DNA of 64,000 nucleotides from contig CAYQEU010000001.1 in assembly GCA_964416765.1 (NCBI GenBank), positions 407,253 to 471,252 of the forward strand. Reading direction: 5' to 3'. Source of the stretch: an uncultured Candidatus Saccharibacteria bacterium. GTDB taxonomy: Bacteria > Patescibacteriota > Doudnabacteria > UBA920. Both the position numbers and the translations under genes were made by a program. Below the pieces are notes generated by a model that worked only from the letters and a program-made list of their open reading frames with translations, searched no databases and was not told where the DNA came from. This document shows positions 19,062 through 64,000 of this stretch, one piece after another (position 1 is the stretch's first letter; each line of letters opens with the position of its first letter).

Positions 19062-19092
19062 AAAAATTTAAGTTATTTAATTAGTACACCGC

Positions 19093-19169
19093 GCCGGCGT
19101 AGCTCAGTTGGTTAGAGCGGAGGACTCATAAGCCTCAGGTCGTTGGTTCAATTCCAACCGCCGGTACCA
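19093..19169 (+). tRNA. tRNA with CAT anticodon (elongator Met or lysidine-modified Ile2), CCA encoded
   Basis: Acceptor gccggcg/cgccggt, anticodon loop ctCATaa, T-arm gttggttcaattccaac. Confidence 0.75.
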
Positions 19170-19198
19170 ATTTGGCCTCGCGGCCACCAATAAATCAT

Positions 19199-19275
19199 GG
19201 ACTGGTAGCTCAGTTGGTTAGAGCGTCCGCCTGTCACGCGGAAGGTCGCGGGTTCGAGTCCCGTTCAGTCCGCCA
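19199..19275 (+). tRNA. tRNA-Asp (anticodon GTC), CCA encoded
   Basis: Acceptor ggactgg/tcagtcc, anticodon stem-loop tccgc-ctGTCac-gcgga, T-loop ggttcgagtcc. Confidence 0.85.
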
Positions 19276-47973: not shown

Positions 47974-48061
47974 ATAACTTAAGTGTGCCTCTTATAAATT
48001 TCAGTGGTTATTCTTTATAAATTATAGCACTTTTGCCGTGTTTTTGTTACCATTTATACAT

Positions 48062-49309: not shown

Positions 49310-49310
49310 C

Positions 49311-49472
49311 ATGCCGATAGACAACAACCTACCTCCCTTTCTGCGAGACGAACTAAAACGAATAGAGGAGGAAGCCCGGGAAAACTTAAGGGAACTAGCG
49401 GAAGAACGGCTTCGTTTAACCCATAATTTTGATGATGCCGCCATGGATAGCATTAGAAAACAACTCTCATGA
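49311..49472 (+). CDS. Small hypothetical protein (53 aa), translationally coupled
   Basis: ATG overlaps the upstream stop (TAACATG) and its stop overlaps the next ATG (ATGA). Charged helical peptide. Confidence 0.4.
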   Translation: MPIDNNLPPFLRDELKRIEEEARENLRELAEERLRLTHNFDDAAMDSIRKQLS

Positions 49473-51313
49473 AGGAAACCGAACTCCACGAACCGGGGAG
49501 CGATTTTGAGCAGGAGCTAGAAACTCCGGAAACTGCCGAAACCACAGAAACGGCGGAGACTTTAGATGCGGCCGAAGGAAAAGAACGGATCGGCACGGTA
49601 CGATCCTGGGTGGGCCAAAAATTTGGGGAACTGGCCAATGTTTTGCGCAAAGACGTTCAATTGAACGAGGAGATGTTTGAAAAGCTTAAGCCCCAAATCG
49701 AAGAAAACAGACGAGCCCAAATAGCGGAATTAAACGGAAGAGTGTTAGCATTGCTGGAACGGACGGAGAATGTGGAAAAGTATTACGACGAACAGTTGGA
49801 TGAGCTGGAGCGGCTAAGCGCGCTTAAAGCCGAAGAATACGTAAACATTTCGCCGGAGGATTTCAAAAATCTGCCCCGCATGGACAAACGGGTTTTAGTC
49901 AGCGAAGGCTTGCTCAGCAAAATTATTGATCAAACTGACGATCCAGAAGCACTCATTGGGTGGACCGGGGTAACCATGGCTTACGAAAGAAAATATATTG
50001 ACCAGATTACAGAGAAGATAGCGCGGCAAGCGGCCAAAGAATATGGTGAACCAAATACCCGGGACGATTGGAAGCTATTGTCTAACCCCGCGTACGAAAA
50101 ACTTAAAGTCATGAGAGGAAGCTCTCATGACAAGGAGAAGGCAATCTACCGCCGGGAAGCCAATGAAAAAATGGATAAGGAAACAGCCGCCCAATTCTTC
50201 CAATGGCAATTTGAAGATGGAAATTATAACGGCGATTTACGCACACTGGGGAATTACATAAAATACGTGCCCGAAGCAGAGAGGGACCCCGAACTTATAG
50301 CGCAAGCCAAGGCGGCCATAAATGAAAAGTACTGGAATATACATTCCGGGAACAGAAACTACGAGCAGCTGGTAGAGCAGATAGACAACTTGGATTCGCC
50401 GGTATCAAAAGTGTTGCAGGCGTTGTGGCAAGGTGAAATGGGCATTCAGCCCTTTGGATCACGCATGGACACAATGGGAAAACAGGTGCGGTTAATTGAA
50501 CGGATGAGAGAGATTATTGGAGACCCGGAACGTGGCCCAAAATATTTGGATTATTTTGTAAAAAAATGCGGCATCACCAACCTAGACCGTTACCCCATGA
50601 GTATGCTGGATGGGGTATACAAAGACCGTGACAATAAAGACAAGCCGTATGGCCTCATGGTGCTGGCGCGGGCGGACGAAAACCAGGCGTTCAGCAAAGA
50701 CAACGAAACATACGAGGAGTTCTATAAGTCCCTGGAAGCAAATGGGCAGCGGTTGCTTTTGGCAGAAGCGGGGAGTGACCGTGAATTGCTGGCAGCCATT
50801 AAGAACGCAACCACTCGGCAGGGAGGAAAAAAAATCGGGTTTATGCTGGTCGGCGGCCACGGCAGCCCGGATAGCATCCAACTTGGCGAAGGCGAAACGG
50901 TTTACCGGCAAACCCCAAAGCGCCGCTTTGATTATGAACAAGATAATGACACCCACATTCGCATGACAGTCCGCGCCGCCCGAAAGTACGTGGAACCAGG
51001 AGCGGAAGTTATGGCTTTGTCATGCTCCACCGGAGCCAAAACTGACAAATACACTTATCCCATTGCCGAATCCACCGCCCGCCGAACTGGCTGGACCACT
51101 CACGGATTTAGCAGGCCCTTAGGGTTTAATAACTTAAAATCCCACATCAAGGAAGACGGCAGAGTAGGGCTTACCGTAGATGTACACGATGGCCCTCTCT
51201 CTATCCATGAAAGGGAAAAGTTCAAGGGAGCTCCCGCGCGGGTTAATACCTTCAAATACGAAAACTTCAAGGCCGAAAGCTACGATTACCTAGCCAAAGC
51301 GGACAAAAAATAA
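49469..51313 (+). CDS. Hypothetical 614-aa protein with a C-terminal caspase-like (C14/CHAT-type) His-Cys dyad candidate
   Basis: N-terminal acidic/coiled-coil region. C-terminal KIGFMLVGGHGSPD ... (55 aa) ... AEVMALSCSTGA gives hydrophobic strand-HG and strand-C spacing like the caspase fold. Confidence 0.55.
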   Translation: MKETELHEPGSDFEQELETPETAETTETAETLDAAEGKERIGTVRSWVGQKFGELANVLRKDVQLNEEMFEKLKPQIEENRRAQIAELNGRVLALLERTENVEKYYDEQLDELERLSALKAEEYVNISPEDFKNLPRMDKRVLVSEGLLSKIIDQTDDPEALIGWTGVTMAYERKYIDQITEKIARQAAKEYGEPNTRDDWKLLSNPAYEKLKVMRGSSHDKEKAIYRREANEKMDKETAAQFFQWQFEDGNYNGDLRTLGNYIKYVPEAERDPELIAQAKAAINEKYWNIHSGNRNYEQLVEQIDNLDSPVSKVLQALWQGEMGIQPFGSRMDTMGKQVRLIERMREIIGDPERGPKYLDYFVKKCGITNLDRYPMSMLDGVYKDRDNKDKPYGLMVLARADENQAFSKDNETYEEFYKSLEANGQRLLLAEAGSDRELLAAIKNATTRQGGKKIGFMLVGGHGSPDSIQLGEGETVYRQTPKRRFDYEQDNDTHIRMTVRAARKYVEPGAEVMALSCSTGAKTDKYTYPIAESTARRTGWTTHGFSRPLGFNNLKSHIKEDGRVGLTVDVHDGPLSIHEREKFKGAPARVNTFKYENFKAESYDYLAKADKK

Positions 51314-51609
51314 TCCCCAAATACCCCTTGCCAAAACTAATAGGTATGGCATAATCCTCCATAGCATATCCAGGAACTGTCCTGGGTAGGCGAGAAAGGG
51401 ACTTCGTCTTCAGACGTTAACTAAGGGGGATTATCGTATTAACAAAACGGATGACTTGCTTGTGCTTGCGGCGTTAGCCGTTGTGGTTGTCTTGTCACTT
51501 TTCTTGCTCATAAAATTTTTGGTCGCACCCAGCCGACCCGTCGAAACCACCAAATGGTGGAAAAAGCTTGAAGAGCGATACGGCAACAAAGACTGATTGT
51601 TATTACCCG

Positions 51610-51646
51610 AAAACGGTTTCCACTTCCCGGAGACCGTTTTCTTTTT
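51610..51646 (+). terminator. Rho-independent terminator
   Basis: 8-bp stem aaaacggt/accgtttt followed by CTTTTT. May terminate a tiny hydrophobic peptide ORF (~51390-51597, no ATG). Confidence 0.45.
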
Positions 51647-51756
51647 GTATCCGCCGACGATTGACCAGGCGGGGGAAATAGGGTAGAATATCCCCAATCC
51701 AAAGAAGGGTTAATGGCTTGCGCAAGTGGGTCATATTTTTTGATGAGGTGAAAATT

Positions 51757-52257
51757 ATGTTTATCAGACTGAAAATATTTACCAGCTTCGGCATGAACGC
51801 CGCCGCCTTGGGCTTCCTGAAAGGCTCAACGCTGGTAAACCGCATTAAGGAAGAAGTATTGCCTGTGTTGCTCGACATCCCAGTCGAGCAAGCCAAGCAA
51901 CTGACTGATGCCGACTTCATGGTCGTCGTCGAACCATCCGCCAACCCCAGCCTGCCGCACGGCATCCGCGACCCCAAGCACGTCCCGGTTATCGTCGCCA
52001 GAATGAACGGGGTTCCCGCCCGTCCTGAAGATAACGCCGCCGCCCGCGCGCTCCATAATATCATCCTCTCCGGGGTTGCCGAGAACATCTCGACGAACCA
52101 GGAGGTGGAAGTAAAAACCATCTTGAAGAAGGATGGGGAACGCGAAGCCCCGGAACTCAAAGACCGGGTCAAAGGCAAGATAAACCACAACTCCGCCGGC
52201 GCCTTCGGCTGGCGAAGCCGTGGTTCAACCAACAAGGAGCGAGAACGGGTCTCCTAA
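51757..52257 (+). CDS. Hypothetical protein
   Basis: Start at MFIRLKIF with SD GAGGTG 6 nt upstream. GC-rich. No motif. Confidence 0.45.
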   Translation: MFIRLKIFTSFGMNAAALGFLKGSTLVNRIKEEVLPVLLDIPVEQAKQLTDADFMVVVEPSANPSLPHGIRDPKHVPVIVARMNGVPARPEDNAAARALHNIILSGVAENISTNQEVEVKTILKKDGEREAPELKDRVKGKINHNSAGAFGWRSRGSTNKERERVS

Positions 52258-52312
52258 CCCTCACGCAAGCAATAACGATAAAGAGCAAGACACTACGGTG
52301 ACTTGCTCTTTA

Positions 52313-52627
52313 TTATTCGAGAAGGACTAACTGATGTTCGCTAATGCCATATTCGGCTTCGCAAGAATCGCACACGAGCGTAGGTTCCGTCACGCGTTCG
52401 AAACTGACTTGTTCCAAATTGCCATCTAGGCACATCACACATTCTCGTCCAATGTTATCGGTTAGCTCCACGAAACAGGTAAGGCTGATCGTGGAGACTT
52501 CGTCGTCCGAACGGGCGATATACAACAATTTGTTTGCCTTATCAGCTTTGAGCAGAATTGTCCGCTCTGGCCCGACATCAAACGACGTCCATCCTCCTGC
52601 CTCGTCTTTCATACCCAATACCTCCAA
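52313..52627 (-). CDS. Hypothetical Cys-containing small protein
   Basis: 104 aa with CVMC...CDSC (possible zinc ribbon). Confidence 0.4.
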   Translation of the reverse strand: MEVLGMKDEAGGWTSFDVGPERTILLKADKANKLLYIARSDDEVSTISLTCFVELTDNIGRECVMCLDGNLEQVSFERVTEPTLVCDSCEAEYGISEHQLVLLE

Positions 52628-52769
52628 GTATGAGTAAGTATAGGGAAAAACCCTAAACTTGACAAATCCTCTATAATGTGTTTAAATACTATGTTGAGTG
52701 CGCGTGCATTCAATTTTTTACAAACAAAAAGCAATACACAACAAAACTAGACTTGGAGGGTCATAGAGT

Positions 52770-53504
52770 ATGTTTAGATTTGGAAAGCGTAAGAAAAATC
52801 CTACGCTAACCGTTGAAGTAGAAATTTTGTCGGAAACAGTATTCCCGACATTCGCCGTCATCAATTTCGACCTCGGGGGAGATAAGGTTTCCCGGGACAT
52901 CCCGTTCGCCAACAAATCCAATTTGTTAGCTTACTTAAATTGGATTAAGGAGCAAAACGGGCTGGATATTTTGAAAGCGATAACGATAGACACGGAGTCG
53001 GTGGACCGGGCAATTAAAAAGGTTCAGGATTCAAAACTCCCGGACGACCCGTTTTCGTTTACCTCGCCCTTCTTCGCTACTGGCTCAGCCAGCGCGTATG
53101 AGGAGCGTGAGCCGCAACCCATCTCGGTTCGGCAATGCGAAAGCGACCGCAACGACAGTTGGAAACACGCCTACCTTTACAACGCCTACGGCGACAAACT
53201 GCGGAACACCCAGTTCTCAAGCCTCGTCTCAGGTCGCGGATTACTCGATAAGCTGGCAACCGCCGGTCTCATCAGCAAAGAGGAAGACGCGGAATTGCGC
53301 GTCCAGCTCGAAAAGCTCGACCTGCCCGAATCCGAACAGGAAGAAGGCGAGTGCGACCGGCAACAGCAACGGTTTGCGGAACTTTGTTCCGAAGACCAGC
53401 GCGAGGATTTCGCCGACAGCATCCGGTCGTCATCGGAGCAGGGTTCGCCCTTCATCGGCGGATTCACGATAGTCATCACCAGCAGCGAGGACAACATCTT
53501 TTAA
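52770..53504 (+). CDS. Hypothetical protein
   Basis: 244 aa. SD GGAGGG 8 nt upstream. Acidic C-terminal half. No motif. Confidence 0.5.
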   Translation: MFRFGKRKKNPTLTVEVEILSETVFPTFAVINFDLGGDKVSRDIPFANKSNLLAYLNWIKEQNGLDILKAITIDTESVDRAIKKVQDSKLPDDPFSFTSPFFATGSASAYEEREPQPISVRQCESDRNDSWKHAYLYNAYGDKLRNTQFSSLVSGRGLLDKLATAGLISKEEDAELRVQLEKLDLPESEQEEGECDRQQQRFAELCSEDQREDFADSIRSSSEQGSPFIGGFTIVITSSEDNIF

Positions 53505-53614
53505 CCTCGTTCGACATTACCCGCCATATTTCCTTCATACCTAAATACTCACAAACCGAAAACAGCCAAGTCATACCCCTTTGACCTGGCTGTTTTTCAT
53601 TTATCACCCCGGTA

Positions 53615-53643
53615 AACAAAAATGCCCCCTTGCGGGGGCATTC
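53615..53643 (-). terminator. Rho-independent terminator of cspA (minus strand)
   Basis: 9-bp hairpin aatgccccc/gggggcatt with a T-run on the minus strand. Confidence 0.65.
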
Positions 53644-53649
53644 TAACGA

Positions 53650-53850
53650 TTATGCTCGTTTAACGTTTATCGCGTTTTTTCCTTTAGGAGAATCCTCAGT
53701 ATCGAAGGTGACTTTGTCGCCTGGCTTGAGTTCTTCTAATGTCAGATCAGCGAGAGAATTTCTGTGGAAGAAAAGATCCTTATCTTCGCCGTCTACGCTT
53801 ATAAAGCCGAAGCCTTTATCTTCTACAACTTTCTTGATCGTACCGTTCAT
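53650..53850 (-). CDS. cspA: Cold-shock protein (CspA family)
   Basis: MNGTIKKVVEDKGFGFISVDGEDKDLFFH has RNP1/RNP2 motifs. A long AT-rich 5' UTR (~180 nt) lies upstream on the minus strand. Confidence 0.9.
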   Translation of the reverse strand: MNGTIKKVVEDKGFGFISVDGEDKDLFFHRNSLADLTLEELKPGDKVTFDTEDSPKGKNAINVKRA

Positions 53851-54034
53851 AGTTGAAATATTAGTGAGTTAAAGCAATTAAATATGTTGGCGAAACTCGA
53901 CTAAATTTCAAATCATATAACTTTGCTTTTTAATAATACCAAATATTTATAAAAAAGTCAAGTATAGGTTGAATAGCCTCAATAGCTATTATACTCATTA
54001 AAAGCTATACTTACCCTATAAAGGAAAGGATAAT

Positions 54035-54220
54035 ATGGCTTTTGAATCAATTGTGTTTCCGTTTGATAAGGATTTTAAGGATTTCGAAAGGGCAGTAGGG
54101 GAGATTATAGCATTGCGGGCTGAAGTAGAAATGATTCGAAGCGTGCTTATGGAAAATGGCCAGAGGGATGTAATCAAAAAAGCGGAACGGAATATGTATA
54201 AGCGTTTGGGTAGCAAATAG
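54035..54220 (+). CDS. Small hypothetical protein (61 aa)
   Basis: SD AAGGAAAGGA upstream. A strong terminator lies immediately downstream. Confidence 0.5.
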   Translation: MAFESIVFPFDKDFKDFERAVGEIIALRAEVEMIRSVLMENGQRDVIKKAERNMYKRLGSK

Positions 54221-54251
54221 AAAAACCCGCCCTTGGAGGGCGGGTTTTTAA
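54221..54251. terminator. Rho-independent (bidirectional) terminator
   Basis: aaaaacccgccc-ttggag-ggcgggttttt. Confidence 0.7.
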
Positions 54252-54462
54252 TTTAGGCAGCAGTGGCACCATCTGCGGGCTTTTGTTCCGCAGGAGTGTT
54301 CGGCGTAGCCGGGGTGGGGTTAGTATTTTCTTCAGCCATAACGTTCCTTTCGCTGCAATACCTCTATCCACGGCAGGCAGTATTAAGTTGTAAGGGTCCC
54401 ATTGGATAATGAACCAGTACCTTAATTATGGCATACATATGGGCTAGTGTCAAAGGGGCCAC

Positions 54463-54478
54463 CGTCGCACAATGTATG
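54463..54478. repeat. Left copy of 16-bp direct repeat CGTCGCACAATGTATG flanking the AT-rich island
   Basis: Exact match to 57611-57626. Embedded in a local palindrome (catac...gtatg). Confidence 0.5.
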
Positions 54479-54499
54479 CAAGGTATCGTTGTGGAAAAA

Positions 54500-54727
54500 C
54501 TAAATTCTTTCTAAACCTCTCAGCTTTCTCAACTCATTTATCTTGTTGCGTCTATCTTTGATCTTCTTAAAATTACGAGTAGTAGGATCAATATTTGAAC
54601 GCAATAAATACTCTAAGTAGTTACAACTTTTACAAGTCCAAATCCAAAGCGGGGGATTATAGGCAATGTGATATTTTACCCAACCACCGTGGTTATTTAC
54701 GTGCTGGTTACAAATATAACACTCCAT
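54500..54727 (-). CDS. Small Zn-ribbon protein (CxxC...CxxC), hypothetical, last gene of island operon
   Basis: 75 aa. CYIC and CKSC pairs. Starts 8 nt after the NTase stop. Confidence 0.5.
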   Translation of the reverse strand: MECYICNQHVNNHGGWVKYHIAYNPPLWIWTCKSCNYLEYLLRSNIDPTTRNFKKIKDRRNKINELRKLRGLERI

Positions 54728-54735
54728 GTAGTAAT

Positions 54736-56076
54736 TTATTTATACTTAGGTAATATCCAGCTATCAAGAACAACATTTTGCCGTGCTCTAACGACACAAA
54801 CATTGTTCCTTATTCCATAGCATTCAACATAATGATTTCCATTAAACTTCGTGTTTTCGGGCTGGTGTAAAGTATGATGATCAGTTATTTCACCTCTTGG
54901 TTGCGGCGACCTGTTATCATTCTTAACTTTCCATTTGATGATATCTAGTTCGCTTTCAGTTTCAGCTGAAAAATCTATCTTTCTGTCTGTTTCTATAATC
55001 CCGGCTGCGTCTAAAATAGTATGGCCGAAACCGTTTCTCGCTAAAGCCCTTGCTATAATCTTGATTTTTTCATTTTTCTCGATTAAGACAGGTATCTTTT
55101 TATCAAAAAGGTATTCTTCAGATTCACTTTTTCTAGTGTAATAATTTCCATCAAGCAAATCATCTATATTAGATTCTTCGGACAAATCTTCTAGCTTAAT
55201 CAAAAAGTTGTCTGCTGCATTTAAAATCTTTTCTTTCTCAGCTTCCGTCATGTCTTCAATGTAAGCATCAATGTACTTCGTGCTATCAGCGCGATCCGTT
55301 ATTTGGGGAGAACTTATGTGTTTTGGAAGATCACAAAAGAAATGAAATATCGCTGAATATATATCCATTTGGACGTTTTGGAAAAAGTACTGAATTACTA
55401 TCTGTTCTATGTGAAAAGATTTAAACTTAAAATTTGAATCTTTAGTTTTTACTGCATGTTTCCAGCCCTTTATGAACTTAACAGTCTTTCTAAAATCGGA
55501 GTTTTGGTCGTTTATTGTACGAGACATTTCAATATAACCCCGGGGGTCAGTAGGAATCCATCCCATTTCTTTATGATCTTGAGATAGTTCTTGATATAAG
55601 TGCTTACGTCTGGATGGTCGCACCTTTAGAAGCTCAGGAACTAGGTACTTATCTAAACCGAATTCGTTAACTTCGTGTTTAATAGCAGGTACTATATCTA
55701 ATGAAAATAGAACATCGTCACCATCATTCTCAAAAAAAAGAATAGTTATTGAGTGCGTTTGATATTCAATTTTTACGTTATGAGAAGTGGGCGATTGGTA
55801 TTCTTCGTTTAGTCTGTTATATAGATCATTTAATACTTCCTGAGAAGTCGCAATACTAGACTGAGTGTCACCAATAATATATAAAACATCAAGATCGTGT
55901 AATGGTGTAATGGCTGTGAACCTCGGGTAAGATCCAATTTGTAAACAATTAGATTCACCCAATATTATTTTTAGTGAATCGTATAGATTAGAAATTAATA
56001 ACCTTTCTGCATCTTTAGGAGACAGATTGTTTCTAACATAATCCCTCAAAAGCTTACTAATGGTTTCTTGCGTCAT
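54736..56076 (-). CDS. Pol-beta-superfamily nucleotidyltransferase, CD-NTase/SMODS-like (candidate second-messenger synthase) with a ~200-aa C-terminal domain of unknown function
   Basis: hGS-x12-DLD (QIGSYPRFTAITPLHDLDVLYII) plus a third acidic strand LFSLDIVPA ~65 aa later, the [DE]h[DE]h...hDhVPA pattern of cGAS/DncV-like NTases. 446 aa. AT-rich codon usage. Confidence 0.65.
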   Translation of the reverse strand: MTQETISKLLRDYVRNNLSPKDAERLLISNLYDSLKIILGESNCLQIGSYPRFTAITPLHDLDVLYIIGDTQSSIATSQEVLNDLYNRLNEEYQSPTSHNVKIEYQTHSITILFFENDGDDVLFSLDIVPAIKHEVNEFGLDKYLVPELLKVRPSRRKHLYQELSQDHKEMGWIPTDPRGYIEMSRTINDQNSDFRKTVKFIKGWKHAVKTKDSNFKFKSFHIEQIVIQYFFQNVQMDIYSAIFHFFCDLPKHISSPQITDRADSTKYIDAYIEDMTEAEKEKILNAADNFLIKLEDLSEESNIDDLLDGNYYTRKSESEEYLFDKKIPVLIEKNEKIKIIARALARNGFGHTILDAAGIIETDRKIDFSAETESELDIIKWKVKNDNRSPQPRGEITDHHTLHQPENTKFNGNHYVECYGIRNNVCVVRARQNVVLDSWILPKYK

Positions 56077-56573
56077 ATGCTTGTTGTTATCATAGAAGTA
56101 ACAACATCGTTCAAAAGCCTTCCTCTAAAGTTTGTAACTGCTCCGTTTCTTTGGTTGTCAACGAGATTCATTTGATCTTCGGGCATTGGCCCCTCGGAAC
56201 GAGGAGCGTATACAACTAAAGCGCAAGAATCAGGTTTCTTTTGTATTATAGCTGAAACATCAGTTTTCCAATCAGGCCAATACACCAGATATAATGAACA
56301 TGATTCAGCCTTGCCGATATCACTTATAGAAGAAACTTCAACAATATTTCTTTCCTTAAAAAGATGGGAATCAATCAATAAATCCCTAAGACTGTTAAAA
56401 TGTGAATCTTTTGCGAAAATGGCAATCTTTCGTTTAGATAGACCATTCCCTAATCTGTACAAAGCGGGACTGACTCCATTCAACCAAAGATATATTGCCC
56501 AAATAATTCCTCCGAGCAAAAATAAAGAATCAATAGTTCCTACCACCGTTAAAATGTTTATTGCTATATTCAT
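56073..56573 (-). CDS. N-terminal transmembrane protein with a ~130-aa cytoplasmic alpha/beta domain (candidate effector/sensor)
   Basis: TM segment(s) IAINILTVVGTIDSLFLLGGIIWAIYLWL, then alternating beta-alpha pattern (KIAIFAKDSHFNSLRDLL..LYLVYW..ALVVYAP). Stop overlaps the NTase start (ATGA). Confidence 0.6.
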   Translation of the reverse strand: MNIAINILTVVGTIDSLFLLGGIIWAIYLWLNGVSPALYRLGNGLSKRKIAIFAKDSHFNSLRDLLIDSHLFKERNIVEVSSISDIGKAESCSLYLVYWPDWKTDVSAIIQKKPDSCALVVYAPRSEGPMPEDQMNLVDNQRNGAVTNFRGRLLNDVVTSMITTSI

Positions 56574-56618
56574 TTATAAAAATTAGATCTATTTAGGTGC
56601 CTTATATAACTGGCTTAA

Positions 56619-56918
56619 TCATACACCTTTTTCGCTTTCTGTATAAGTTCCACCCAAACTTTCTACAATCCTTTTCTTTAATGCAGGAATAGGGGAGACT
56701 AGCCATTGCTTAGGCTCTTCTTGGACACATAATCCAGCTGACAGCCCAAACTCATCAACAATATCCCTAAGGTCTCCGAGACGAATCAGAATCGGTTGTT
56801 TGCAACCACATGAGCAATAACCAACTTTATAACCCATTGATCCGGTTTCAGGATCAGCATCAAGAGGGTAGCCTTTAAGTGGCCAACCACCTTTAGGATT
56901 TTGTCTGACTAGGAGCAT
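56619..56918 (-). CDS. Hypothetical small Cys-containing protein (99 aa)
   Basis: GYCSCGCKQP. Overlaps the upstream ORF by 26 nt in another frame. Confidence 0.4.
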   Translation of the reverse strand: MLLVRQNPKGGWPLKGYPLDADPETGSMGYKVGYCSCGCKQPILIRLGDLRDIVDEFGLSAGLCVQEEPKQWLVSPIPALKKRIVESLGGTYTESEKGV

Positions 56919-57258
56919 AAGGTTTCTTCTTCTTGGTTTGTTCGTAATCTACCCGCCGTAAGAACTTCTTATGACTTTCTTCTAATTCCACAAATACAGG
57001 GTCGGGAGTGTAAATGGACCTAATATATTTCTTAGCCTCGCTAAAGGCAATCTGAGGTGTTTTACCAACTAGCTGAGGGGTATGAATAGACTCACGTCGC
57101 ATAAAGTTAGAATCTTGGTCATACTCATGAATTGATACTTGGTATTCCTTATGGCCGTCAGCTGATAAAATAGGCAAAGCTTTAAGGTAAAACCTCAAAT
57201 CGTAGTATTCAAAGAGATCTTCATAAAAATATACTTTTTTACGCTTTATTCGATTCAT
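56893..57258 (-). CDS. Hypothetical small basic protein (121 aa), first gene of island operon
   Basis: AT-rich, Lys-rich C-terminus. No motif. Confidence 0.4.
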   Translation of the reverse strand: MNRIKRKKVYFYEDLFEYYDLRFYLKALPILSADGHKEYQVSIHEYDQDSNFMRRESIHTPQLVGKTPQIAFSEAKKYIRSIYTPDPVFVELEESHKKFLRRVDYEQTKKKKPYAPSQTKS

Positions 57259-57610
57259 ACAGATATCTTATAACTAGGAGCTTAACCATACCAGCAATAA
57301 ACTAAAGAAAATTATAAAACCCAATAAAAATAAATATAAAATAATAACTTATAACGATATGTGATACACAGGTCGAGCTTACCAGCGGGGGAGGCCCCCG
57401 CTCTCTCCGGCTTTTTGGCGGCCGATCGAGCGCGGGCCTCACACCCGTTTCTGTCTTAAACCACATACTAACTCGTTAAAAGAACTTATAACGCTTAGAA
57501 ACGATCCTAGTGCAATACAACTATAACGGAGTAGTGGGGAACTAGTTGTTAAAAGACTACTCTGCTATACCTGAAACCCTGGGGAATAGGCATAAACGCA
57601 ATATATCATA

Positions 57611-57626
57611 CGTCGCACAATGTATG
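57611..57626. repeat. Right copy of 16-bp direct repeat CGTCGCACAATGTATG
   Basis: Exact match to 54463-54478. Confidence 0.5.
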
Positions 57627-57896
57627 TTATACGACATACTATATTGATCAATTAATGAATCCGGATTTAACAAATATATTTATTGATTACTAGATTGTGC
57701 ATGTAACCACATATTTATATAAATTTATAATCGCGCTCTCCTGCTTGATTAACAATGTTAGATAATTGTTAAGATAATGATTTAATACTCCCTTTTCACC
57801 CCCTCTCTATTTCATGCCTATATCTCTATCTATCGACGATCGTCACGAATAAAAATATCTTCCCTTTTATCATATTTAGCCATGAATTTTGATAGA

Positions 57897-57925
57897 AACA
57901 AAAACCCGGGTTTGCACCCGGGTCA
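57897..57925 (-). terminator. Rho-independent terminator of the minus-strand hydrolase/pilin locus
   Basis: Palindromic hairpin acccgggt-ttgc-acccgggt with a T-run on the minus strand. Confidence 0.6.
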
Positions 57926-57956
57926 AATTACAGCTTTTTCTAAACGTTTAACTTCG

Positions 57957-58541
57957 CTAATCTACGTCACCATTACCAGGAGCGTTGTTATTAGTATCAC
58001 TGTTCGTATCCCCGATTTTGGTACCCGCACATGTCGCGTTACCCACAATATAATCAATGGGGCAACGGAATATGCCAGCAGGCACCCCATTGATTGTGGG
58101 GTTTCCGGCTAATAAAGGTTTTCCGTTTGGTAGGACTCTGCCACCAAAAATCAAAAAGTTAGTTAAAGAAAATGCTGCCAGCACGAGAAAGAAACCAATG
58201 ACCGCGTTCACCAATAGTTTTTTTGCTGATGTAACAGCTTCGGCGTTTCCGGCCGCAACTACAAAAGAGTAGCCAGCAAAAACTATCATGAACACCGCGA
58301 TGATACCGGCCATATCTATCAAAAAGTTCGTCACTATAATAACCAGGTTAAACAGGTCGGTAAGTTGGCAGGGATTGTCTGAAAAACTGCCGCACGGGAC
58401 AAACCCCTGGCCTGCGTTAGGGTCAGCTGCCTGAACCAAGGTTGGCATAATTAGCATAGTTGTAGCCACAACCAAGAATAAGACGTAAAAAACCTTATTT
58501 AATATTTTCATGTCTGGGATCATTAATTTTATTTTATTCAT
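57957..58541 (-). CDS. T4SS-pilin-like (TrbC/VirB2-type topology) secreted two-TM hairpin protein
   Basis: Signal peptide ...LVQA/ADP, a Cys pair (PCGSF..NPCQ), two long hydrophobic helices split by a short polar loop, and a Gly/Asn-rich C-terminus. Confidence 0.6.
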   Translation of the reverse strand: MNKIKLMIPDMKILNKVFYVLFLVVATTMLIMPTLVQAADPNAGQGFVPCGSFSDNPCQLTDLFNLVIIVTNFLIDMAGIIAVFMIVFAGYSFVVAAGNAEAVTSAKKLLVNAVIGFFLVLAAFSLTNFLIFGGRVLPNGKPLLAGNPTINGVPAGIFRCPIDYIVGNATCAGTKIGDTNSDTNNNAPGNGDVD

Positions 58542-59636
58542 TTATCTGCCTATGTAATTAATATGAAGGTTAGGTCCCGTAGTCGTGGGGAATACTTTGT
58601 AGTCTTTAATGGCCGTGCATTTTGGATCCTTAGAGGCTTCGTTGGCAAAGTTAACTTTACCCAATGAAATGATTGCTTCACAAAGGGTGGGCCAGTTAGG
58701 GTTAGTTGAACCTGCCTCTTTGGAATAACTAGGAGAACGTCCCCCGTTTAGCGCCAAATCCACGCAATTTCCACCCCGTGGATCCCCTGTCTTATGGCAA
58801 CCGCTAATGTGGGTTCCACTAATGCTGGAAGTAAGTATCCAACTTATACCAGGGGTTTTAGCTTTTAATCCGGCCAGTTGATCAGCCAAATCCTTGCATA
58901 GCTTACTCGCGCCGGCAGCATGCGGTATGCTGGCGGGAGTATCTACAATACCTCCGGAACAATTCACAGCAGTACCGGGCTTTGATCCGGTGGAAACGGT
59001 ATCGTCATTAGCACCGTGGCTGACCGCGGTATCGCAGTCGTCCGTTTCCCCTAGCCCCAAATCTTTGCATCCGGGCAACTCGTAATTGCCCAACAACTGC
59101 GGTGGCTGGATGCTCCTGAAGGCCACTAAGGTAGGGTTGATTTGTCTGAGTAAGACGTAGGAAGACAGCATGATCAGGAAACCTGCCAATACAGAGACCA
59201 GTATCTCCTTGGCCTGTTCTTTGCCATGCTCTCCTCCCACCATGTACATATACCCTGCCAGGACCACAAAGAAGACGGAAGCTACCGCTCCAAAAGCTAG
59301 GGCAAAGCGGTAACCCTTGTTGACACAGGTAGCCAGGTCCCCTGCTGATTGGTTGTCGGTTACCTGGGCGTTCTCCTGGAAAGTACCAGTGTTGGTGACG
59401 GTGGCGTTGGAAGGGGTGGGGGCACAAAGCAGGGCCCTGATGGAGCTTTCTACTCCCCTGCCTACATAGGTGGCTCCCGGTGACTTGGTGGGCGCGTTGT
59501 TGGCTGGGGCGTTGTTGGTGGGGGGAACCGGGTTAGGAATAAGCTGGGCGTTGGCTGGGGCAGCGTAGGCAAAAACCATTTCCACAAAAGCAATGGAAAG
59601 GATTATCAATTTTAAAGTATTGGTTTTGGTTTTCAT
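58542..59636 (-). CDS. Paralog A: shared signal-peptide + two-TM pilin-like module fused to an unknown C-terminal domain (possible LAS/M15-like peptidase)
   Basis: N-terminal 190 aa nearly identical to paralogs B and C. The C-terminus has HKTGDPRGGNCVDLAL and LHINY, which could form a metal site. 364 aa. Confidence 0.6.
   Translation of the reverse strand: MKTKTNTLKLIILSIAFVEMVFAYAAPANAQLIPNPVPPTNNAPANNAPTKSPGATYVGRGVESSIRALLCAPTPSNATVTNTGTFQENAQVTDNQSAGDLATCVNKGYRFALAFGAVASVFFVVLAGYMYMVGGEHGKEQAKEILVSVLAGFLIMLSSYVLLRQINPTLVAFRSIQPPQLLGNYELPGCKDLGLGETDDCDTAVSHGANDDTVSTGSKPGTAVNCSGGIVDTPASIPHAAGASKLCKDLADQLAGLKAKTPGISWILTSSISGTHISGCHKTGDPRGGNCVDLALNGGRSPSYSKEAGSTNPNWPTLCEAIISLGKVNFANEASKDPKCTAIKDYKVFPTTTGPNLHINYIGR
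59097..59526. repeat. Repeat copy A (~430 bp) of the shared 5' pilin-like module
   Basis: Near-identical to 60861-61326 and 62121-62586, with 2 mismatches seen by eye. Confidence 0.8.
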
Positions 59637-59646
59637 ATATTTAAAA

Positions 59647-60189
59647 TTACTCTGTTGGGCAAAAGCTTAAGCCAACGTTATATGGATTAGGTCGATAGTC
59701 ATCAGGCGGGGATTTGTAAACATAAATCGGCAATTGGCAAAGGTCGGCTTTGGGTGCGCCAAATAACTCAACCAGAGCCTGCTCCGCCGCTTTCTTTGCT
59801 GAATCCACGTCATTTTGGTCAGTGATCCACAGTTCGAACTGGTCCCCATCCGGCTGATAATCTATCTTGTACTGGTCTGTTTGCGAGAGAAGCAACGGAG
59901 TAGAAGCCGATGGACTATAATCTTTAGGAAATACATTCCTGATTTTAATGGACCCGTTAACCGTTTTGTAATAAATCCATTCTTGGGTGATGTCCTTTTG
60001 CGGGCTATTGGGGTAGTTTAATTTCTTTGACAGGGCGTTTGTCTGGTCTGTCCTGGTACCCGGGTTGTTGGAATTGGTGACACCCTGCCTTTGACCGGAC
60101 AAAATAAAGACCACAATAATTACCAGGATAATTAACAATACCGCCCCAATGGCAACGTATATTTTATTTTCCTTAATTAAATTCCACAT
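59647..60189 (-). CDS. Hypothetical membrane-anchored protein
   Basis: N-terminal TM helix IYVAIGAVLLIILVIIVVFIL then a soluble domain. Start overlaps the upstream gene's end. Confidence 0.5.
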   Translation of the reverse strand: MWNLIKENKIYVAIGAVLLIILVIIVVFILSGQRQGVTNSNNPGTRTDQTNALSKKLNYPNSPQKDITQEWIYYKTVNGSIKIRNVFPKDYSPSASTPLLLSQTDQYKIDYQPDGDQFELWITDQNDVDSAKKAAEQALVELFGAPKADLCQLPIYVYKSPPDDYRPNPYNVGLSFCPTE

Positions 60190-61406
60190 TGTGTTTTATA
60201 CTCGTTATAAACACGGGACATTCTAACCACATAGTCTCGGGTTTGCTCCAAAGAGTTAGCTCCTACAATGCAAGCAGTTTGGGCGGCATCCTTGAACGGA
60301 CACAGCGCCACTATCATGCCCGGACATATGCTACTGGGTCCTATCCTCCCCTCTCCGGCATTGTAGCCAGCCGCAATTTTTACGTAATCAACTCCGCCCG
60401 CTTTTTGCGCGATGTACTTCATGTATTTGGCGGCGCAGGGAATTTCCGCGATCCCGTTGGTTTGCCACCCATTGTTAGTGCAGCCAAACCGCGCGGCGGT
60501 GTCATTGCTCATTTGCATTAGCCCCTTACAGCATCCAGTCCAGCTGACTAGGGTTTGGTTTAAGTTGCTCTCAATTGTAGCTATGGTCTTAATAAAATTT
60601 GGGTCAATTCCATTAGCTTGCCCGGCCGCTTTGAACGCGGCATCAAAAGTCTTGTTACTGCATAGGGTTTTAAGCTTTGGACTGTCCTTTCCCAAACTGC
60701 AAACTTTCCCGCTTTTCCCCGTCATTGTTCCGCCCTGAGGTGGAATTCCTGTACCGTCGCCATTACTGACCCCGGGGGTGCCATCGGCAAGGGCGCAATC
60801 GTCCCCCTGGCCCAGATGCACGTCGCTACAGCTGGGAAGGTCACTATACTTCCCCAACAGCTGCGGTGGCTGGATGCTCCTGAAGGCCACTAAGGTAGGG
60901 TTGATTTGTCTGAGTAAGACGTAGGAAGACAGCATGATCAGGAAACCTGCCAATACAGAGACCAGTATCTCCTTGGCCTGTTCTTTGCCATGCTCTCCTC
61001 CCACCATGTACATATACCCTGCCAGGACCACAAAGAAGACGGAAGCTACCGCTCCAAAAGCTAGGGCAAAGCGGTAACCCTTGTTGACACAGGTAGCCAG
61101 GTCCCCTGCTGATTGGTTGTCGGTTACCTGGGCGTTCTCCTGGAAAGTACCAGTGTTGGTGACGGTGGCGTTGGAAGGGGTGGGGGCACAAAGCAGGGCC
61201 CTGATGGAGCTTTCTACTCCCCTGCCTACATAGGTGGCTCCCGGTGGCTTTGTGGGCGCGTTGTTGGCTGGGGCGTTGTTGGTGGGGGGATCAGCTAAGG
61301 CAGGGGTAGTGAAGGCGAGGAATTGGAGAGGGATTAGCACCAAAATATAAACCAAAAACACTACTTTGCCGTATCGCGTTTTGTTTCTGGATCGAAAAAT
61401 ATTCAT
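60177..61406 (-). CDS. Paralog B: pilin-like module fused to a family-1 lytic transglycosylase (SLT) domain
   Basis: The C-terminus carries the SLT triad ES (TIATIESNLN), GLMQ (CKGLMQMS) and AYNAG (AAGYNAGEG). Shared N-terminal module. Confidence 0.7.
   Translation of the reverse strand: MNIFRSRNKTRYGKVVFLVYILVLIPLQFLAFTTPALADPPTNNAPANNAPTKPPGATYVGRGVESSIRALLCAPTPSNATVTNTGTFQENAQVTDNQSAGDLATCVNKGYRFALAFGAVASVFFVVLAGYMYMVGGEHGKEQAKEILVSVLAGFLIMLSSYVLLRQINPTLVAFRSIQPPQLLGKYSDLPSCSDVHLGQGDDCALADGTPGVSNGDGTGIPPQGGTMTGKSGKVCSLGKDSPKLKTLCSNKTFDAAFKAAGQANGIDPNFIKTIATIESNLNQTLVSWTGCCKGLMQMSNDTAARFGCTNNGWQTNGIAEIPCAAKYMKYIAQKAGGVDYVKIAAGYNAGEGRIGPSSICPGMIVALCPFKDAAQTACIVGANSLEQTRDYVVRMSRVYNEYKTQCGI
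60861..61326. repeat. Repeat copy B (466 bp)
   Basis: Identical by eye to 62121-62586. Confidence 0.85.
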
Positions 61407-61421
61407 ACAGTTATTGTAACA

Positions 61422-62645
61422 CTAACAACCCGAAGTTTTATATGATGTCCACACTGCCTTGGCCCACACGCCATAACCATCCCCTCCCGGGTGGATCCCA
61501 TTATATTTTTGTGGGAAGATATTTAAATTCTTGGAATAAGTATCGTAATAGCAACCGCTTTGCCCGCTCTTTATACCGGCTATTACAGTTTGGACAGTAG
61601 TGTTATTTACGTTCGGGGTATCAGTACGCGATCCTCCCTCAGATGTAGTAGAAGTAAATTTCGGAGGGCCAATCCAAATTATTTTACCCACACCTTTGCT
61701 CTGGAGTACTTGAATTAACTTCGCGGTATCAGTTTTTACCTGTTGTTGATTGTGTTGGCCATTTGCGTCATTCGTCCCCAACGAAATCACTACAATACTT
61801 GGTTTATTGCTAGCATAATAATCCAAAGATTGCGCGGCAAAAGAATTCGCCCATTGTGTAATGGTAGTACCTCCTCTGTTATCAGGATCCTCACCCATCC
61901 CCCTATTAACCAGAACGCCACCATCCGCCGCGATAAGAGTTTTAAATTGTGGCTTGAGGCCCACAGAAAGCGAATCTCCAATAATTAGAAACTTTATCCC
62001 CTGGGTTTGTCCTGGCCCCCCATTACTGCCCCCTCCTGTAGTGGTGTTCCCTTGTGCATCAACACAGTTCTCCCCGAGTCCCGCATCAGCACAGCTTGGG
62101 AGGCTGTATTTGCCGACTAGCTGCGGTGGCTGGATGCTCCTGAAGGCCACTAAGGTAGGGTTGATTTGTCTGAGTAAGACGTAGGAAGACAGCATGATCA
62201 GGAAACCTGCCAATACAGAGACCAGTATCTCCTTGGCCTGTTCTTTGCCATGCTCTCCTCCCACCATGTACATATACCCTGCCAGGACCACAAAGAAGAC
62301 GGAAGCTACCGCTCCAAAAGCTAGGGCAAAGCGGTAACCCTTGTTGACACAGGTAGCCAGGTCCCCTGCTGATTGGTTGTCGGTTACCTGGGCGTTCTCC
62401 TGGAAAGTACCAGTGTTGGTGACGGTGGCGTTGGAAGGGGTGGGGGCACAAAGCAGGGCCCTGATGGAGCTTTCTACTCCCCTGCCTACATAGGTGGCTC
62501 CCGGTGGCTTTGTGGGCGCGTTGTTGGCTGGGGCGTTGTTGGTGGGGGGATCAGCTAAGGCAGGGGTAGTGAAGGCGAGGAATTGCAGCGCTAAAACAGC
62601 GGCTGTAAACCCGATCCTAAAGTATTTTGGTTTTTGTTTCCACAT
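61422..62645 (-). CDS. Paralog C: pilin-like module fused to a GDSL/SGNH hydrolase domain
   Basis: SGNH blocks: GDS (LIIGDSLSVG), GxND (VVISLGTNDANG), DxxH region (NGIHPGGDG). Shared N-terminal module. Confidence 0.7.
   Translation of the reverse strand: MWKQKPKYFRIGFTAAVLALQFLAFTTPALADPPTNNAPANNAPTKPPGATYVGRGVESSIRALLCAPTPSNATVTNTGTFQENAQVTDNQSAGDLATCVNKGYRFALAFGAVASVFFVVLAGYMYMVGGEHGKEQAKEILVSVLAGFLIMLSSYVLLRQINPTLVAFRSIQPPQLVGKYSLPSCADAGLGENCVDAQGNTTTGGGSNGGPGQTQGIKFLIIGDSLSVGLKPQFKTLIAADGGVLVNRGMGEDPDNRGGTTITQWANSFAAQSLDYYASNKPSIVVISLGTNDANGQHNQQQVKTDTAKLIQVLQSKGVGKIIWIGPPKFTSTTSEGGSRTDTPNVNNTTVQTVIAGIKSGQSGCYYDTYSKNLNIFPQKYNGIHPGGDGYGVWAKAVWTSYKTSGC
62121..62586. repeat. Repeat copy C (466 bp)
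   Basis: Identical by eye to 60861-61326, 1260 bp apart. Confidence 0.85.
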
Positions 62646-63920
62646 TTATTTTCCGAGGAAATCTAAAGGATTGTAGGTGTAACCGCTGGGGACGGAATAT
62701 GAACCGTAAGTGCTTTGGTAAGCGCCCGGGGTAATAGTAAACCCGTTCGCGTCAAACACGGTGAAGTGCAAATGGAACCCATGGTCAGGACCATACAATA
62801 AGGCGGAAGTATTTCCCGTGTTTCCTTCGTAGCCAACAATGTCACCGCGTTTTACGGTTTGCCCGCTGCTGAGGATAAACTTTTTCATGTGACCGTACAA
62901 AGTGACAATATTGCGGTTGCCGCTTTTAGTCGAAATAGTATGTTTGATAGCGCACCAATTGCCGTACGCGGCGGCGCCAGTAGCGCATTTCACAACAACA
63001 CCATCAGCGGCGGCATAAATAGTAGTCCCTGCGGGACCGGCAAGATCTATTCCGTTATGGAAAGAATAGCCTAAAGAAGTAAAACCGGTGTTGCCGTAAC
63101 CCTGTGTCATGACACCGTTTAATGGCCACGCCAGTACTCCTTTGCTTGCCGCAATGGAATGGTTGCCGCTATTCCGGGCTTTATTATCAAGATTGTAAAT
63201 TTCCTGCTGGATATCAGCCTGTTCACTGCGGGTGCTGTTCAAAACTTGCTGATATTTGCTTTCCTGGCCCTGGGTCTGCTGTAATAACGACTCTTTGGCC
63301 AGACGTTGGTCGTTCAACGCATCCTGGTTTTGACTTAGCTCATCCTTAAGTTCAGAAAGGCGTTGCAACTGCGCTTTGAGGTCGGATTGCTGTTGCTCCA
63401 GTTTTTTCTTAACTTCTTTGATGCGGTTTACCAAATCAAGAACCTGCTTGTTTACGCTCTGAGTGTATTCAACCTGGTCCAAAAACGCGGAAAAATTATC
63501 GCTGCCCATGGTTAGGGTCAGGAAAGAATTGTTATCCAATTCGTTCAGCTGGACTACAAGTTCGGCCAGAATTTTCCGGTTGTCCGCGATTTCCGCTTCG
63601 CGGCGGTCAATTTCCGTTTGCAAATCCTGGATTTGCAGGGTGGTATCGTCGATGCGGGTATTATTAGCCTGGATTTCGAGCTCGGTTGACTGGATCTGGG
63701 AATCATAAATGCCGATCTCATTTTGAAGTGAGGCGCTCTGTCCCCTTAACCGGCCGATATTCTGGTTAAGGCCATTAATCTGATCATTCAGGTTTTTTAG
63801 CTTGTTCTGCAGGTCGGTGCGGGTGTCTGCTCCGGCAGGTGAAATAAATAAAAGGCTCAACCCTAATCCCAGGATTGCCGCCAATATTTTTGTTTTTGTT
63901 TCAGCAAACTTCGATTTCAT
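62646..63920 (-). CDS. Coiled-coil M23 family metallopeptidase (EnvC/NlpD-like peptidoglycan DD-endopeptidase)
   Basis: Signal peptide, ~230-aa coiled coil, M23 motifs HxxxD (FHNGIDLAG) and HxH (GFHLHFTVF). Confidence 0.85.
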   Translation of the reverse strand: MKSKFAETKTKILAAILGLGLSLLFISPAGADTRTDLQNKLKNLNDQINGLNQNIGRLRGQSASLQNEIGIYDSQIQSTELEIQANNTRIDDTTLQIQDLQTEIDRREAEIADNRKILAELVVQLNELDNNSFLTLTMGSDNFSAFLDQVEYTQSVNKQVLDLVNRIKEVKKKLEQQQSDLKAQLQRLSELKDELSQNQDALNDQRLAKESLLQQTQGQESKYQQVLNSTRSEQADIQQEIYNLDNKARNSGNHSIAASKGVLAWPLNGVMTQGYGNTGFTSLGYSFHNGIDLAGPAGTTIYAAADGVVVKCATGAAAYGNWCAIKHTISTKSGNRNIVTLYGHMKKFILSSGQTVKRGDIVGYEGNTGNTSALLYGPDHGFHLHFTVFDANGFTITPGAYQSTYGSYSVPSGYTYNPLDFLGK

Positions 63921-63924: not shown

Positions 63925-63955
63925 AGTTATTATAGCACAAAATCCGAATTTATGC
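63925..63955 (-). promoter_or_regulatory. Extended -10 promoter (TGcTATAAT on minus strand) for the M23/hydrolase locus
   Basis: The minus-strand reading ...ttgtgctataataactaagcATG places TGnTATAAT ~8 nt before the start, suggesting a short or leaderless mRNA. Confidence 0.35.
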
Positions 63956-64000
63956 CAATTTTTAGGTGAATTTAGTTAGAGCGATGCTGCTGCTGAATTT

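Follow-up and report, generated by a model that had tools for sequence, protein, structure and literature searches.

Pilin-type membrane modules joined to diverse cell wall hydrolase heads in a conserved Patescibacteria operon

Why would a bacterium mount several different predicted cell wall hydrolases on one and the same pilin-like membrane module? The question is raised by a locus in the genome of an uncultured Candidatus Saccharibacteria bacterium (assembly GCA_964416765.1, contig CAYQEU010000001.1), lying in a stretch of 64,000 nt (positions 407,253 to 471,252), hereafter the window. A large part of bacterial diversity is accounted for by Patescibacteria, organisms that live attached to other microbes, and we know of no account of how they cross their own wall and that of the host. 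In the window, six minus-strand open reading frames (ORFs) at 57957-63920 are tightly packed, with an intergenic spacing of -13 to +15 nt after checking of the ORF coordinates. They encode an M23 peptidase, three paralogs (A, B and C) in which a shared module carries different C-terminal heads, a small membrane protein and a headless pilin-like protein. This six-gene locus and its gene order had been proposed in a preliminary description of the same DNA, and all of its ORFs are present as proposed. The observation itself is confirmed by the analysis below, and the interpretation then offered, a surface-displayed lytic toolkit directed at a host envelope or at the cell's own wall, is partly supported. 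The features are as follows.

63929-63958, minus strand: promoter-like site, TTGGCA-18 nt-TATAAT with TG (extended -10), sigma-70-like consensus match 11/12
62646-63920, minus strand: M23 peptidase with coiled coil, 424 aa (Pfam PF01551, motifs, EnvC alignment)
61422-62645, minus strand: paralog C, 407 aa, pilin-type module and SGNH/GDSL head (Pfam PF13472 and motifs)
62119-62585, minus strand: module block copy in paralog C, 467 nt, 0 mismatches against the copy in B
60177-61406, minus strand: paralog B, 409 aa, pilin-type module and SLT (family-1 lytic transglycosylase) head (Pfam PF01464)
60859-61325, minus strand: module block copy in paralog B (DNA repeat comparison)
59647-60189, minus strand: 180-aa single-pass membrane protein, external domain of about 140 aa with one Cys pair
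58542-59636, minus strand: paralog A, 364 aa, pilin-type module and LAS-fold zinc peptidase head
59097-59526, minus strand: module block copy in paralog A, 430 nt, 2 mismatches against the copies in B and C
57957-58541, minus strand: headless pilin-like protein, 194 aa (PF18895, 33.2 bits)
57903-57924, minus strand: terminator-like hairpin, 9-bp stem with 6 GC pairs and a T run (pattern match only)

The M23 start codon follows the promoter-like site (a consensus match, not evidence of function) at a distance of 9 nt, and the terminator-like hairpin is found 33 nt past the stop codon of the last gene. Framed by these two elements, the six genes appear to form one transcription unit.

The module is shared between the paralogs to a degree that their heads are not. 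Its DNA is identical in C and B across 467 nt and differs in A at 2 of 430 nt, and the edges of the block are razor-sharp, with unalignable sequence right outside on both sides. Full-length protein identity among the paralogs is 55%, with about 21% between the heads. The zero synonymous divergence over approximately 143 codons, beside unrelated heads, points to recent gene conversion or cassette exchange rather than to purifying selection.

Hydropathy and motif analysis resolves the module into a signal peptide, an N/P/A-rich stretch, a Cys pair, two hydrophobic helices, INPTLVAFRSIQPPQL and a linker with a second Cys pair that leads into the head, in agreement with the signal peptide, Cys pair and two-helix hairpin of the preliminary description. 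The transmembrane (TM) helices of paralog B span residues 113-131 and 147-165, separated by a short loop with two lysines (..GGEHGKEQAKE..), and an AlphaFold2 (AF2) single-sequence model of paralog A contains helices at 97-133 and 135-174 with a predicted local distance difference test (pLDDT) score of 80-90. By the positive-inside rule, the loop is predicted to be cytoplasmic and both ends to lie outside. A signal peptide followed by a two-TM hairpin is the characteristic topology of VirB2/TrbC propilins, and the module has the two hydrophobic helices, the short basic loop and the signal peptide of this type of pilin. Every external segment of the module proteins contains an even number of Cys residues. 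The signal peptides end in ..TTPALA/DPP or ..AAPANA/Q (the slash marking cleavage), the first Cys follows some 30 residues further on, and motif analysis found no lipobox L-x-x-C at the cleavage site. An ordinary lipoprotein anchor, which the preliminary description had named as the outcome that would overturn it, was rejected because the lipobox is absent.

Two fragmentary assemblies touch the same repeat. A short-read assembly (L026) matches window positions 47957-59126 at 100% and ends inside the module, and a JGI contig (L025, 1-972) begins inside one. Independent contigs break here because an exact repeat of 430-467 nt defeats short-read assemblers, and module arrays are probably under-represented or fragmented in metagenome-assembled genomes (MAGs).

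Kinship of the module to the pilins of type IV secretion systems (T4SSs) was assessed at the level of the whole family. An exhaustive HMMER search with the module profile against 1.84 billion representative proteins recovered homologs in 2334 clusters at E<=1e-3 and in 253 at E<=1e-10. When 128 close homologs were annotated with Pfam, 87 matched PF18895 (T4SS_pilin) at E<=1e-3 (best 9.5e-19) and six matched TrbC. Modules of orthologs at the same locus in other genomes also exceed the PF18895 gathering cut-off of 26.6 bits (L014, 34.5; L005, 33.6; L016, 32.5; L006, 30.5; L004, 29.2 bits), as does the 194-aa protein of the window at its 33.2 bits. The hidden Markov model (HMM) of the module further matches, at 4e-12, a 113-aa pilin that itself matches PF04956 (TrbC/VirB2) at 4e-16 and PF18895 at 9e-14. 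This pilin belongs to a genuine T4SS cluster in a Saccharibacteria-labelled MAG (L019, 1150-9002), which serves as a positive control for T4SS context. It is followed there by a PF18895::TrbL/VirB6 fusion of 483 aa, by PrgI, by a 593-aa VirB4-type ATPase and by an 864-aa VirD4-like protein. The three paralogs of the window score 16.8-18.0 bits against PF18895, below the cut-off, and their matches to PF04956 are likewise below cut-off. The pilin assignment of the preliminary description thus stands through the homologs, the same-locus orthologs and L019, and does not stand on the three window copies. Because of the PF18895 matches of homologs and orthologs and of the match to the L019 pilin, the module is accepted on profile evidence as homologous to the VirB2-like T4SS_pilin lineage. 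Within it, the module forms a distinct subfamily, marked by conserved elements of its own, YLCxP...DLxxCINKxYRF before TM1 and INPxLxxFxxIQPP after TM2. A word-indexed protein search with the module profile returned 24 relatives, all short. The pilin::VirB6 protein of L019 represents a second kind of pilin-module fusion, and modules also occur in tandem within a chain, with four modules and then an SLT head in P0063 and P0145, and three modules with a head without assignment in P0122.

The enzymes named in the preliminary description were recovered by their families. The M23 protein scores 79 bits against PF01551 with H288xxxD and H383xH intact. Head B scores 47.5 bits against PF01464 (cut-off 21.3) and has the E279-S280 catalytic motif of SLT/GH23 enzymes; in an alignment with the transglycosylase domain of phage T7 gp16, its closest solved relative, the catalytic Glu residues coincide, and EmtA was also matched. 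Head C scores 36.2 bits against PF13472 (GDSL_2; cut-off 32.9) and contains GDS223 and GTND, and its block V reads NGIH, where the His of the expected DxxH is kept and the Asp is replaced by Asn. Apart from this substitution the catalytic motifs are intact, against the possibility raised earlier that the heads lack catalytic residues. It is an attractive idea that the SGNH head may strip from peptidoglycan the O-acetyl groups that block lytic transglycosylases.

Head A, formerly described as an unknown LAS-like domain, is a LAS-fold domain at residues ~222-363. AF2 without an alignment gave a pLDDT below 40 for this head, and an alignment of 45 head sequences was built instead. C-H281, D, NE and H358 are invariant, and the His, Asp and His zinc ligands of the LAS fold are conserved. 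No Pfam or NCBIfam model matched it, including Peptidase_M15, M15_3, M15_4, VanY and HH_signal, and the best PDB profile match, ShhN, was not significant at E=0.014. Because no existing family model matches, head A is regarded as a separate LAS subfamily. It differs from the LAS zinc peptidases MepA, VanX/VanY, LdcB, the T5/Ply500 L-Ala-D-Glu peptidases and ShhN in four conserved Cys residues of its own, one directly before the first metal-binding His, and in the lack of a significant Pfam, NCBIfam or PDB sequence family. In the set examined, heads of this type were seen only in fusion with the pilin-type module (46 of 155 module homologs), and a word-indexed protein search with head A alone returned 2 relatives.

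Heads are the rule among the closest module proteins, 147 of 155 of which continue for at least 60 aa after the module. The heads named by Pfam are SLT (13), C39_2 (5), M23 (5), M15 (4), Amidase_2 (3), M15_4 (3), GDSL_2 (3), SLT_3 (3), VanY (2) and CHAP (1), all of them families of cell wall hydrolases or esterases; about one third of heads have no assignment, and some homologs combine LAS with a second domain in one chain. Single-linkage clustering of the heads gave one component without separation into types, since linkers common to the heads and two-domain heads merged the clusters.

To what extent is this arrangement conserved? A scan of one genome per species found 18 loci, and exact-protein look-ups added more, mostly from MAGs labelled uncultured Candidatus Saccharibacteria or Patescibacteria group. 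The scan was seeded with a tighter alignment of close relatives, so that the loci are biased to one clade and the M23 association described here holds for that clade. One to three module::head genes lie immediately downstream of an M23 ortholog in L001-L018, L020-L022 and L023 (22 contigs; M23 E-values 1e-123 to 1e-205), which amounts to at least 20 independent loci because L020-L022 carry the same protein. Wherever both could be read, in 21 related loci, the M23 ortholog stands directly upstream of the fusions, and this adjacency was not a search criterion. L024 has the same flanking genes and is too fragmented for M23 to be read. Common flanks are WecG/NUDIX, glutamyl-tRNA synthetase (gltX), then M23 and the fusions, followed by cysteine desulfurase, a UPF0020 methyltransferase, L27 and CTP synthase. 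In 9 of the 11 loci with two or more fusions, the N-terminus and module are 78-99% identical within the genome (99% in L007 and L012). The modules of different genomes share a median of 37% identity, and heads within a genome about 15-24%. Head type and number vary even among close relatives, as these loci illustrate.

Window: SGNH, SLT, LAS, and the headless pilin-like protein
L001: SLT, LAS
L002: SLT, C39_2, and a 486-aa homolog of the 194-aa protein (290-aa head)
L006: SLT and LAS in one chain
L007 and L008: M15-motif head (SQHKIGCAVD...HLH, by eye) and a weakly glucosaminidase-like type as in L009
L010: SLT, CHAP, LAS
L013 and L014: SLT only

The arrangement is a clade-wide conserved operon in which the module is homogenised within genomes and the heads are exchanged as cassettes.

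Two genes of the window operon stand apart from the three fusions. The 194-aa protein has the same architecture (signal peptide, Cys pair and two TM helices), with a module 27% identical to those of the paralogs, and headless homologs of 179-198 aa close the array on large contigs of two other genomes. Its homolog of 486 aa in L002 (12807-14267) carries a C-terminal head of about 290 aa without a Pfam match, whose Cys/His motifs (..AGCGMISMIHA.., ..GNHFILIY..) resemble papain- or C39-like peptidases by eye. This homolog had given rise to the idea that the 194-aa protein is what remains of a fusion whose head was lost to the low-GC island next door. The idea was largely abandoned because two other genomes have headless homologs at this position and because the gene is directly followed by a terminator-like hairpin; it is therefore taken as a genuine headless pilin-like gene.

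The 180-aa protein has no Pfam, NCBIfam or PDB relative. Its orthologs follow the SLT fusion in L002 and L003, and two further small single-pass families take the equivalent place after SLT-type heads (L001, L010) and glucosaminidase-like heads (L007-L009). These families are unrelated in sequence, and profile comparison of all three found no relationship. Small TM proteins thus stand directly after SLT- or glucosaminidase-type heads in 8 loci; none follows a LAS, SGNH or CHAP head, or the SLT heads of L006 and L013-L015. We hypothesise that they may be cognate inhibitors, immunity factors or chaperones of the glycosidase heads. Their coordinates, where listed, are as follows.

Window, 59647-60189: the 180-aa protein
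L001, 6787-7314: small single-pass protein
L010, 8269-8784: small single-pass protein
L007, 11970-12410: small single-pass protein
L008, 11883-12317: small single-pass protein
L009, 10822-11304: small single-pass protein

What, then, might such an operon do? We propose, at a probability of about 0.42, that it encodes a battery of hydrolases on a pilin-derived module, whose role is linked to a T4SS and consists in making space in the wall or breaching it. These enzymes would act on the cell's own wall first and possibly on the host wall at the contact site. Each fusion would be exported through Sec and, after cleavage of the signal peptide, sit in the membrane as a two-helix hairpin, with a disulfide-bonded N-terminal segment outside and the basic loop in the cytoplasm. 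The chain would then exit through INPxLxxFxxIQPP and a disulfide-bonded linker carrying one head, the SGNH esterase in C, the family-1 lytic transglycosylase in B and the LAS zinc peptidase in A. The module would provide a common device for insertion and targeting, possibly also for oligomerisation, with its copies kept identical within a genome by gene conversion, and the heads would be exchangeable cassettes. With M23, the enzymes may cover both the glycan strands and the stem peptides and cross-links, and together could open a local hole in the sacculus. This would be a VirB1-like function borne by pilin-type subunits and linked to the T4SS-type pilus apparatus of Patescibacteria.

The T4SS-linked role is preferred because the only known relatives of the module are T4SS pilins, and because a signal peptide and a hairpin with strongly conserved TM residues exceed what an anchor needs. 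Space-making is suggested by the interchangeability of head types among close relatives, which is typical of enzymes for which any bond will do. The repertoire of M23/LytM, SLT and Cys or LAS peptidase also parallels that of PrgK-type monoderm hydrolases. A further parallel is found in SEML1_0006 (lysozyme-like and Cys protease) and SEML1_0007 (Hedgehog/DD-peptidase) of Southlakia epibionticum, which are essential and adjoin VirB4 (PMC12102498). Most Patescibacteria with VirB2-like pilins have no recognisable VirB1 near virB4 (PMC12102498), and this reported gap also favours the proposal.

Several observations weigh against the proposed T4SS link, beginning with the sub-threshold PF18895 and PF04956 scores of the window's own modules. 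The preliminary description had suggested a check for VirB4/VirB6/VirD4; no such gene was found among the window ORFs scanned with Pfam, which include every ORF of at least 400 aa, and the surroundings of the related loci contain no T4SS gene over +-10 kb. The operon's neighbours gltX, WecG/NUDIX, cysteine desulfurase and methyltransferase are housekeeping genes, and head C has no solved or curated relative that would name its substrate, be it O-acetyl peptidoglycan or lipid. By our own estimate, a head of about 20 kDa on every subunit is hard to fit into a canonical VirB2 polymer. The EnvC/PcsB-like, invariant M23 partner and the presence of FtsE/FtsX in the window point to division instead. 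The EnvC-like partner and housekeeping context fit remodelling of the cell's own wall as well as an attack toolkit, and it is pure conjecture that the proteins are displayed on a fibre or act on the wall of a host.

The division reading takes the M23 protein as an FtsEX-coupled hydrolase or activator of the EnvC/PcsB/RipC type, the fusions as tethered septal autolysins or remodelling enzymes and the hairpin as their anchor or divisome dock, and it is possible, if somewhat unlikely. The M23 architecture is EnvC/PcsB-like, with a signal/anchor helix, a coiled coil of about 250 aa and the M23 domain; several coiled-coil families match residues 20-250, and the protein aligns over its full length with EnvC chains 8tzk_E and 8hd0_E, taken from FtsEX-EnvC structures. 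FtsE (TIGR02673, over cut-off) and FtsX with an extracellular domain are encoded at 41451-43042 on the plus strand. No coiled-coil hydrolase lies beside them, and the M23 protein 20 kb away is the sole candidate partner seen in the window. The MacB/FtsX-type permease gene of S. epibionticum is followed by one for a coiled-coil CHAP protein, whose best structural matches are M23 proteins. The constant adjacency of M23 and fusions within a vertically conserved housekeeping neighbourhood favours the same reading, and a short tether would place the heads beside the cell's own wall. However, head type and copy number shift among close relatives, some of which have only SLT or only LAS, which is unusual for core division enzymes; the full pilin-like architecture with its conserved TM residues surpasses the needs of an anchor; no link between the module and FtsEX is known; and coiled-coil M23 proteins are not specific to FtsEX partners.

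The variation in heads that sits poorly with division would suit a host-directed toolkit resembling polymorphic toxins, in which the module is a trafficking or display domain (on the surface or on a VirB2-type fibre), the heads digest the host wall at the episymbiotic contact and the small TM proteins protect the producer as immunity or inhibitor factors. Such a toolkit would account for the constant N-terminus with its concerted evolution, the variable C-terminal cassettes, the diversity of heads, which cover every peptidoglycan bond class, and the three unrelated small-TM families placed directly after SLT- or glucosaminidase-type heads in 8 loci. Phage T7 gp16, to which the SLT head is closest among solved structures, attacks a foreign wall from the outside. 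Damage to host envelopes by secreted lytic transglycosylases has been proposed (PMC11665869). We consider it unlikely nonetheless, as a short linker ties the heads to the membrane of the cell that makes them, the locus is core and syntenic rather than mobile, no relatives were found in the viral contigs scanned, and toxin-immunity pairing is not one-to-one, given that small TM proteins are missing after LAS, SGNH, CHAP and some SLT heads. The boldest reading, which we hold to be decidedly improbable, makes the hydrolases minor, T4SS-extracted subunits at the tip or along the shaft of a VirB2-type filament, an armed pilus that would bring a glycosidase, a peptidase and an esterase to the host wall and bore a channel through it for feeding of the epibiont. 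Were it true, modules would be homogenised because every subunit has to fit into a common lattice, and the producer would be protected by the small TM proteins. There is, lastly, very little chance that the pilin resemblance is spurious and the module an ordinary lipoprotein or hydrophobic anchor, or the locus a prophage lysis cassette. The window paralogs do fall below the PF18895 cut-off, and hydrophobic hairpins can bias HMM scores. Against this stand the PALA/DPP signal peptide without a lipobox, the PF18895 matches of 87 of 128 homologs (to 9.5e-19) and of same-locus orthologs over the cut-off, and the recovery by the module HMM of a PF04956/PF18895 pilin within a VirB4/VirB6/VirD4 cluster. 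A prophage or lysis-cassette origin is also unsupported, because no phage genes surround the locus and the scan of viral contigs found no relatives.

The rest of the window is ordinary chromosome, encoding ATP synthase, MurJ, LepA, GyrB, PheS, RF-1, FtsE/FtsX, CTP synthase and five tRNAs, with a cluster of tRNA-Met, tRNA-Met and tRNA-Asp at 18986-19275. The gap between the array and the desulfurase gene is a variable spot in related genomes and measures 8.6 kb in the window. It includes a low-GC island (53500-57950; GC 0.31-0.42 against about 0.48) that abuts the operon terminator and bears a gene pair resembling a type-I cyclic-oligonucleotide-based antiphage signalling system (CBASS). The CBASS-like pair, on the minus strand, consists of an oligonucleotide cyclase with SMODS and AGS_C domains (54736-56076; PADLOC PDLC00785, 4e-174) and a one-TM effector (56073-56573; PDLC00664, 2e-58), and is followed by two small ORFs at 56619-57258. 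Three large plus-strand ORFs have no Pfam match at the thresholds used: 49469-51313 (614 aa), 6867-8384 (505 aa) and 25828-27279 (483 aa).

The fusion of pilin-type modules to lytic transglycosylase, LAS peptidase, CHAP/C39 and esterase heads offers testable candidates for the missing wall-opening activity of Patescibacteria, and would, if the division reading is true, represent a previously unrecognised type of autolysin anchoring. The analysis also defines a new LAS peptidase subfamily without a Pfam model, and clearly illustrates how a targeting module can evolve in concert while catalytic domains are exchanged as cassettes. These features are of interest for research on the Patescibacteria envelope and on T4SS evolution.

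Among known systems, the nearest in the module itself are VirB2/TrbC pilins and the PF18895 arrays, which share with it the signal peptide, the hairpin with a basic loop, homology to PF18895/PF04956, tandem genes and a restriction to Patescibacteria-type genomes. VirB2-like pilin arrays have been described in Patescibacteria, together with their essentiality in one species (PMC10633639, PMC12102498, PMC12857230); 441 PF18895 arrays are reported, for example SEML1_0014-0019 of S. epibionticum, and identity within the published arrays is given as 25% on average and 54% at most (PMC12102498). The T4SS and the VirB2-like pilins are essential in the single species tested, and their function has been described as completely unknown (PMC11665869, PMC12857230). 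In contrast to these arrays, the module here carries a catalytic head of 150-230 aa, is 78-99% identical within an array, has the extra elements YLCxP...CINKxYRF before TM1 and INPxLxxFxxIQPP after TM2, and belongs to an array that adjoins an M23 gene, away from virB4. We speculate that some published arrays might be such fusions, as their highest value, 54%, comes near the 55% found between the full-length paralogs of the window.

In enzymatic repertoire, the closest counterparts are the VirB1-like hydrolases of monoderm conjugation systems. PrgK of pCF10 combines a TM segment with LytM, SLT and CHAP domains, TraG of pIP501 combines SLT and CHAP, and CwlT of ICEBs1 belongs to the same group. 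These share with the operon a membrane-anchored set of glycan- and peptide-cleaving activities, with LytM/M23 in addition (PMC12102498). In the conjugation systems these activities make a passage in peptidoglycan for an envelope-spanning machine. Each such hydrolase, however, is one multidomain protein that has a plain TM helix at its N-terminus and is encoded within a T4SS cluster, whereas here the activities are split over several proteins with a common pilin-type hairpin in an operon outside any T4SS cluster. The first gene, with its coiled coil and catalytic domain, and the FtsE/FtsX genes of the same window recall FtsEX-EnvC, PcsB and RipC. The M23 domain of EnvC is degenerate, unlike the M23 protein here, which keeps its catalytic residues, and to our knowledge no FtsEX system includes pilin-module hydrolases. 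Polymorphic toxins and the peptidoglycan-hydrolase effectors, with immunity proteins, of bacteria-killing T4SSs and type VI secretion systems (T6SSs) resemble the fusions in their constant N-terminal part, variable C-terminal cassettes and, in some loci, small adjacent membrane proteins. The fusions differ from these systems as integral membrane proteins of the producer, without strict toxin-immunity pairing or recognised T4SS or T6SS targeting signals, and in a core syntenic locus. Within the library searched, no description was found of pilin-module::hydrolase fusions, or of the combination of such modules and their changing heads with an obligatory EnvC-like M23 operon outside a T4SS cluster, module homogenisation within genomes and the LAS subfamily. 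The parts are already known singly, namely Patescibacteria VirB2-like arrays, monoderm VirB1-like hydrolases, FtsEX-EnvC and LAS, SLT and SGNH enzymes; the system is not categorically new, and it is their combination that appears to be so far undescribed.

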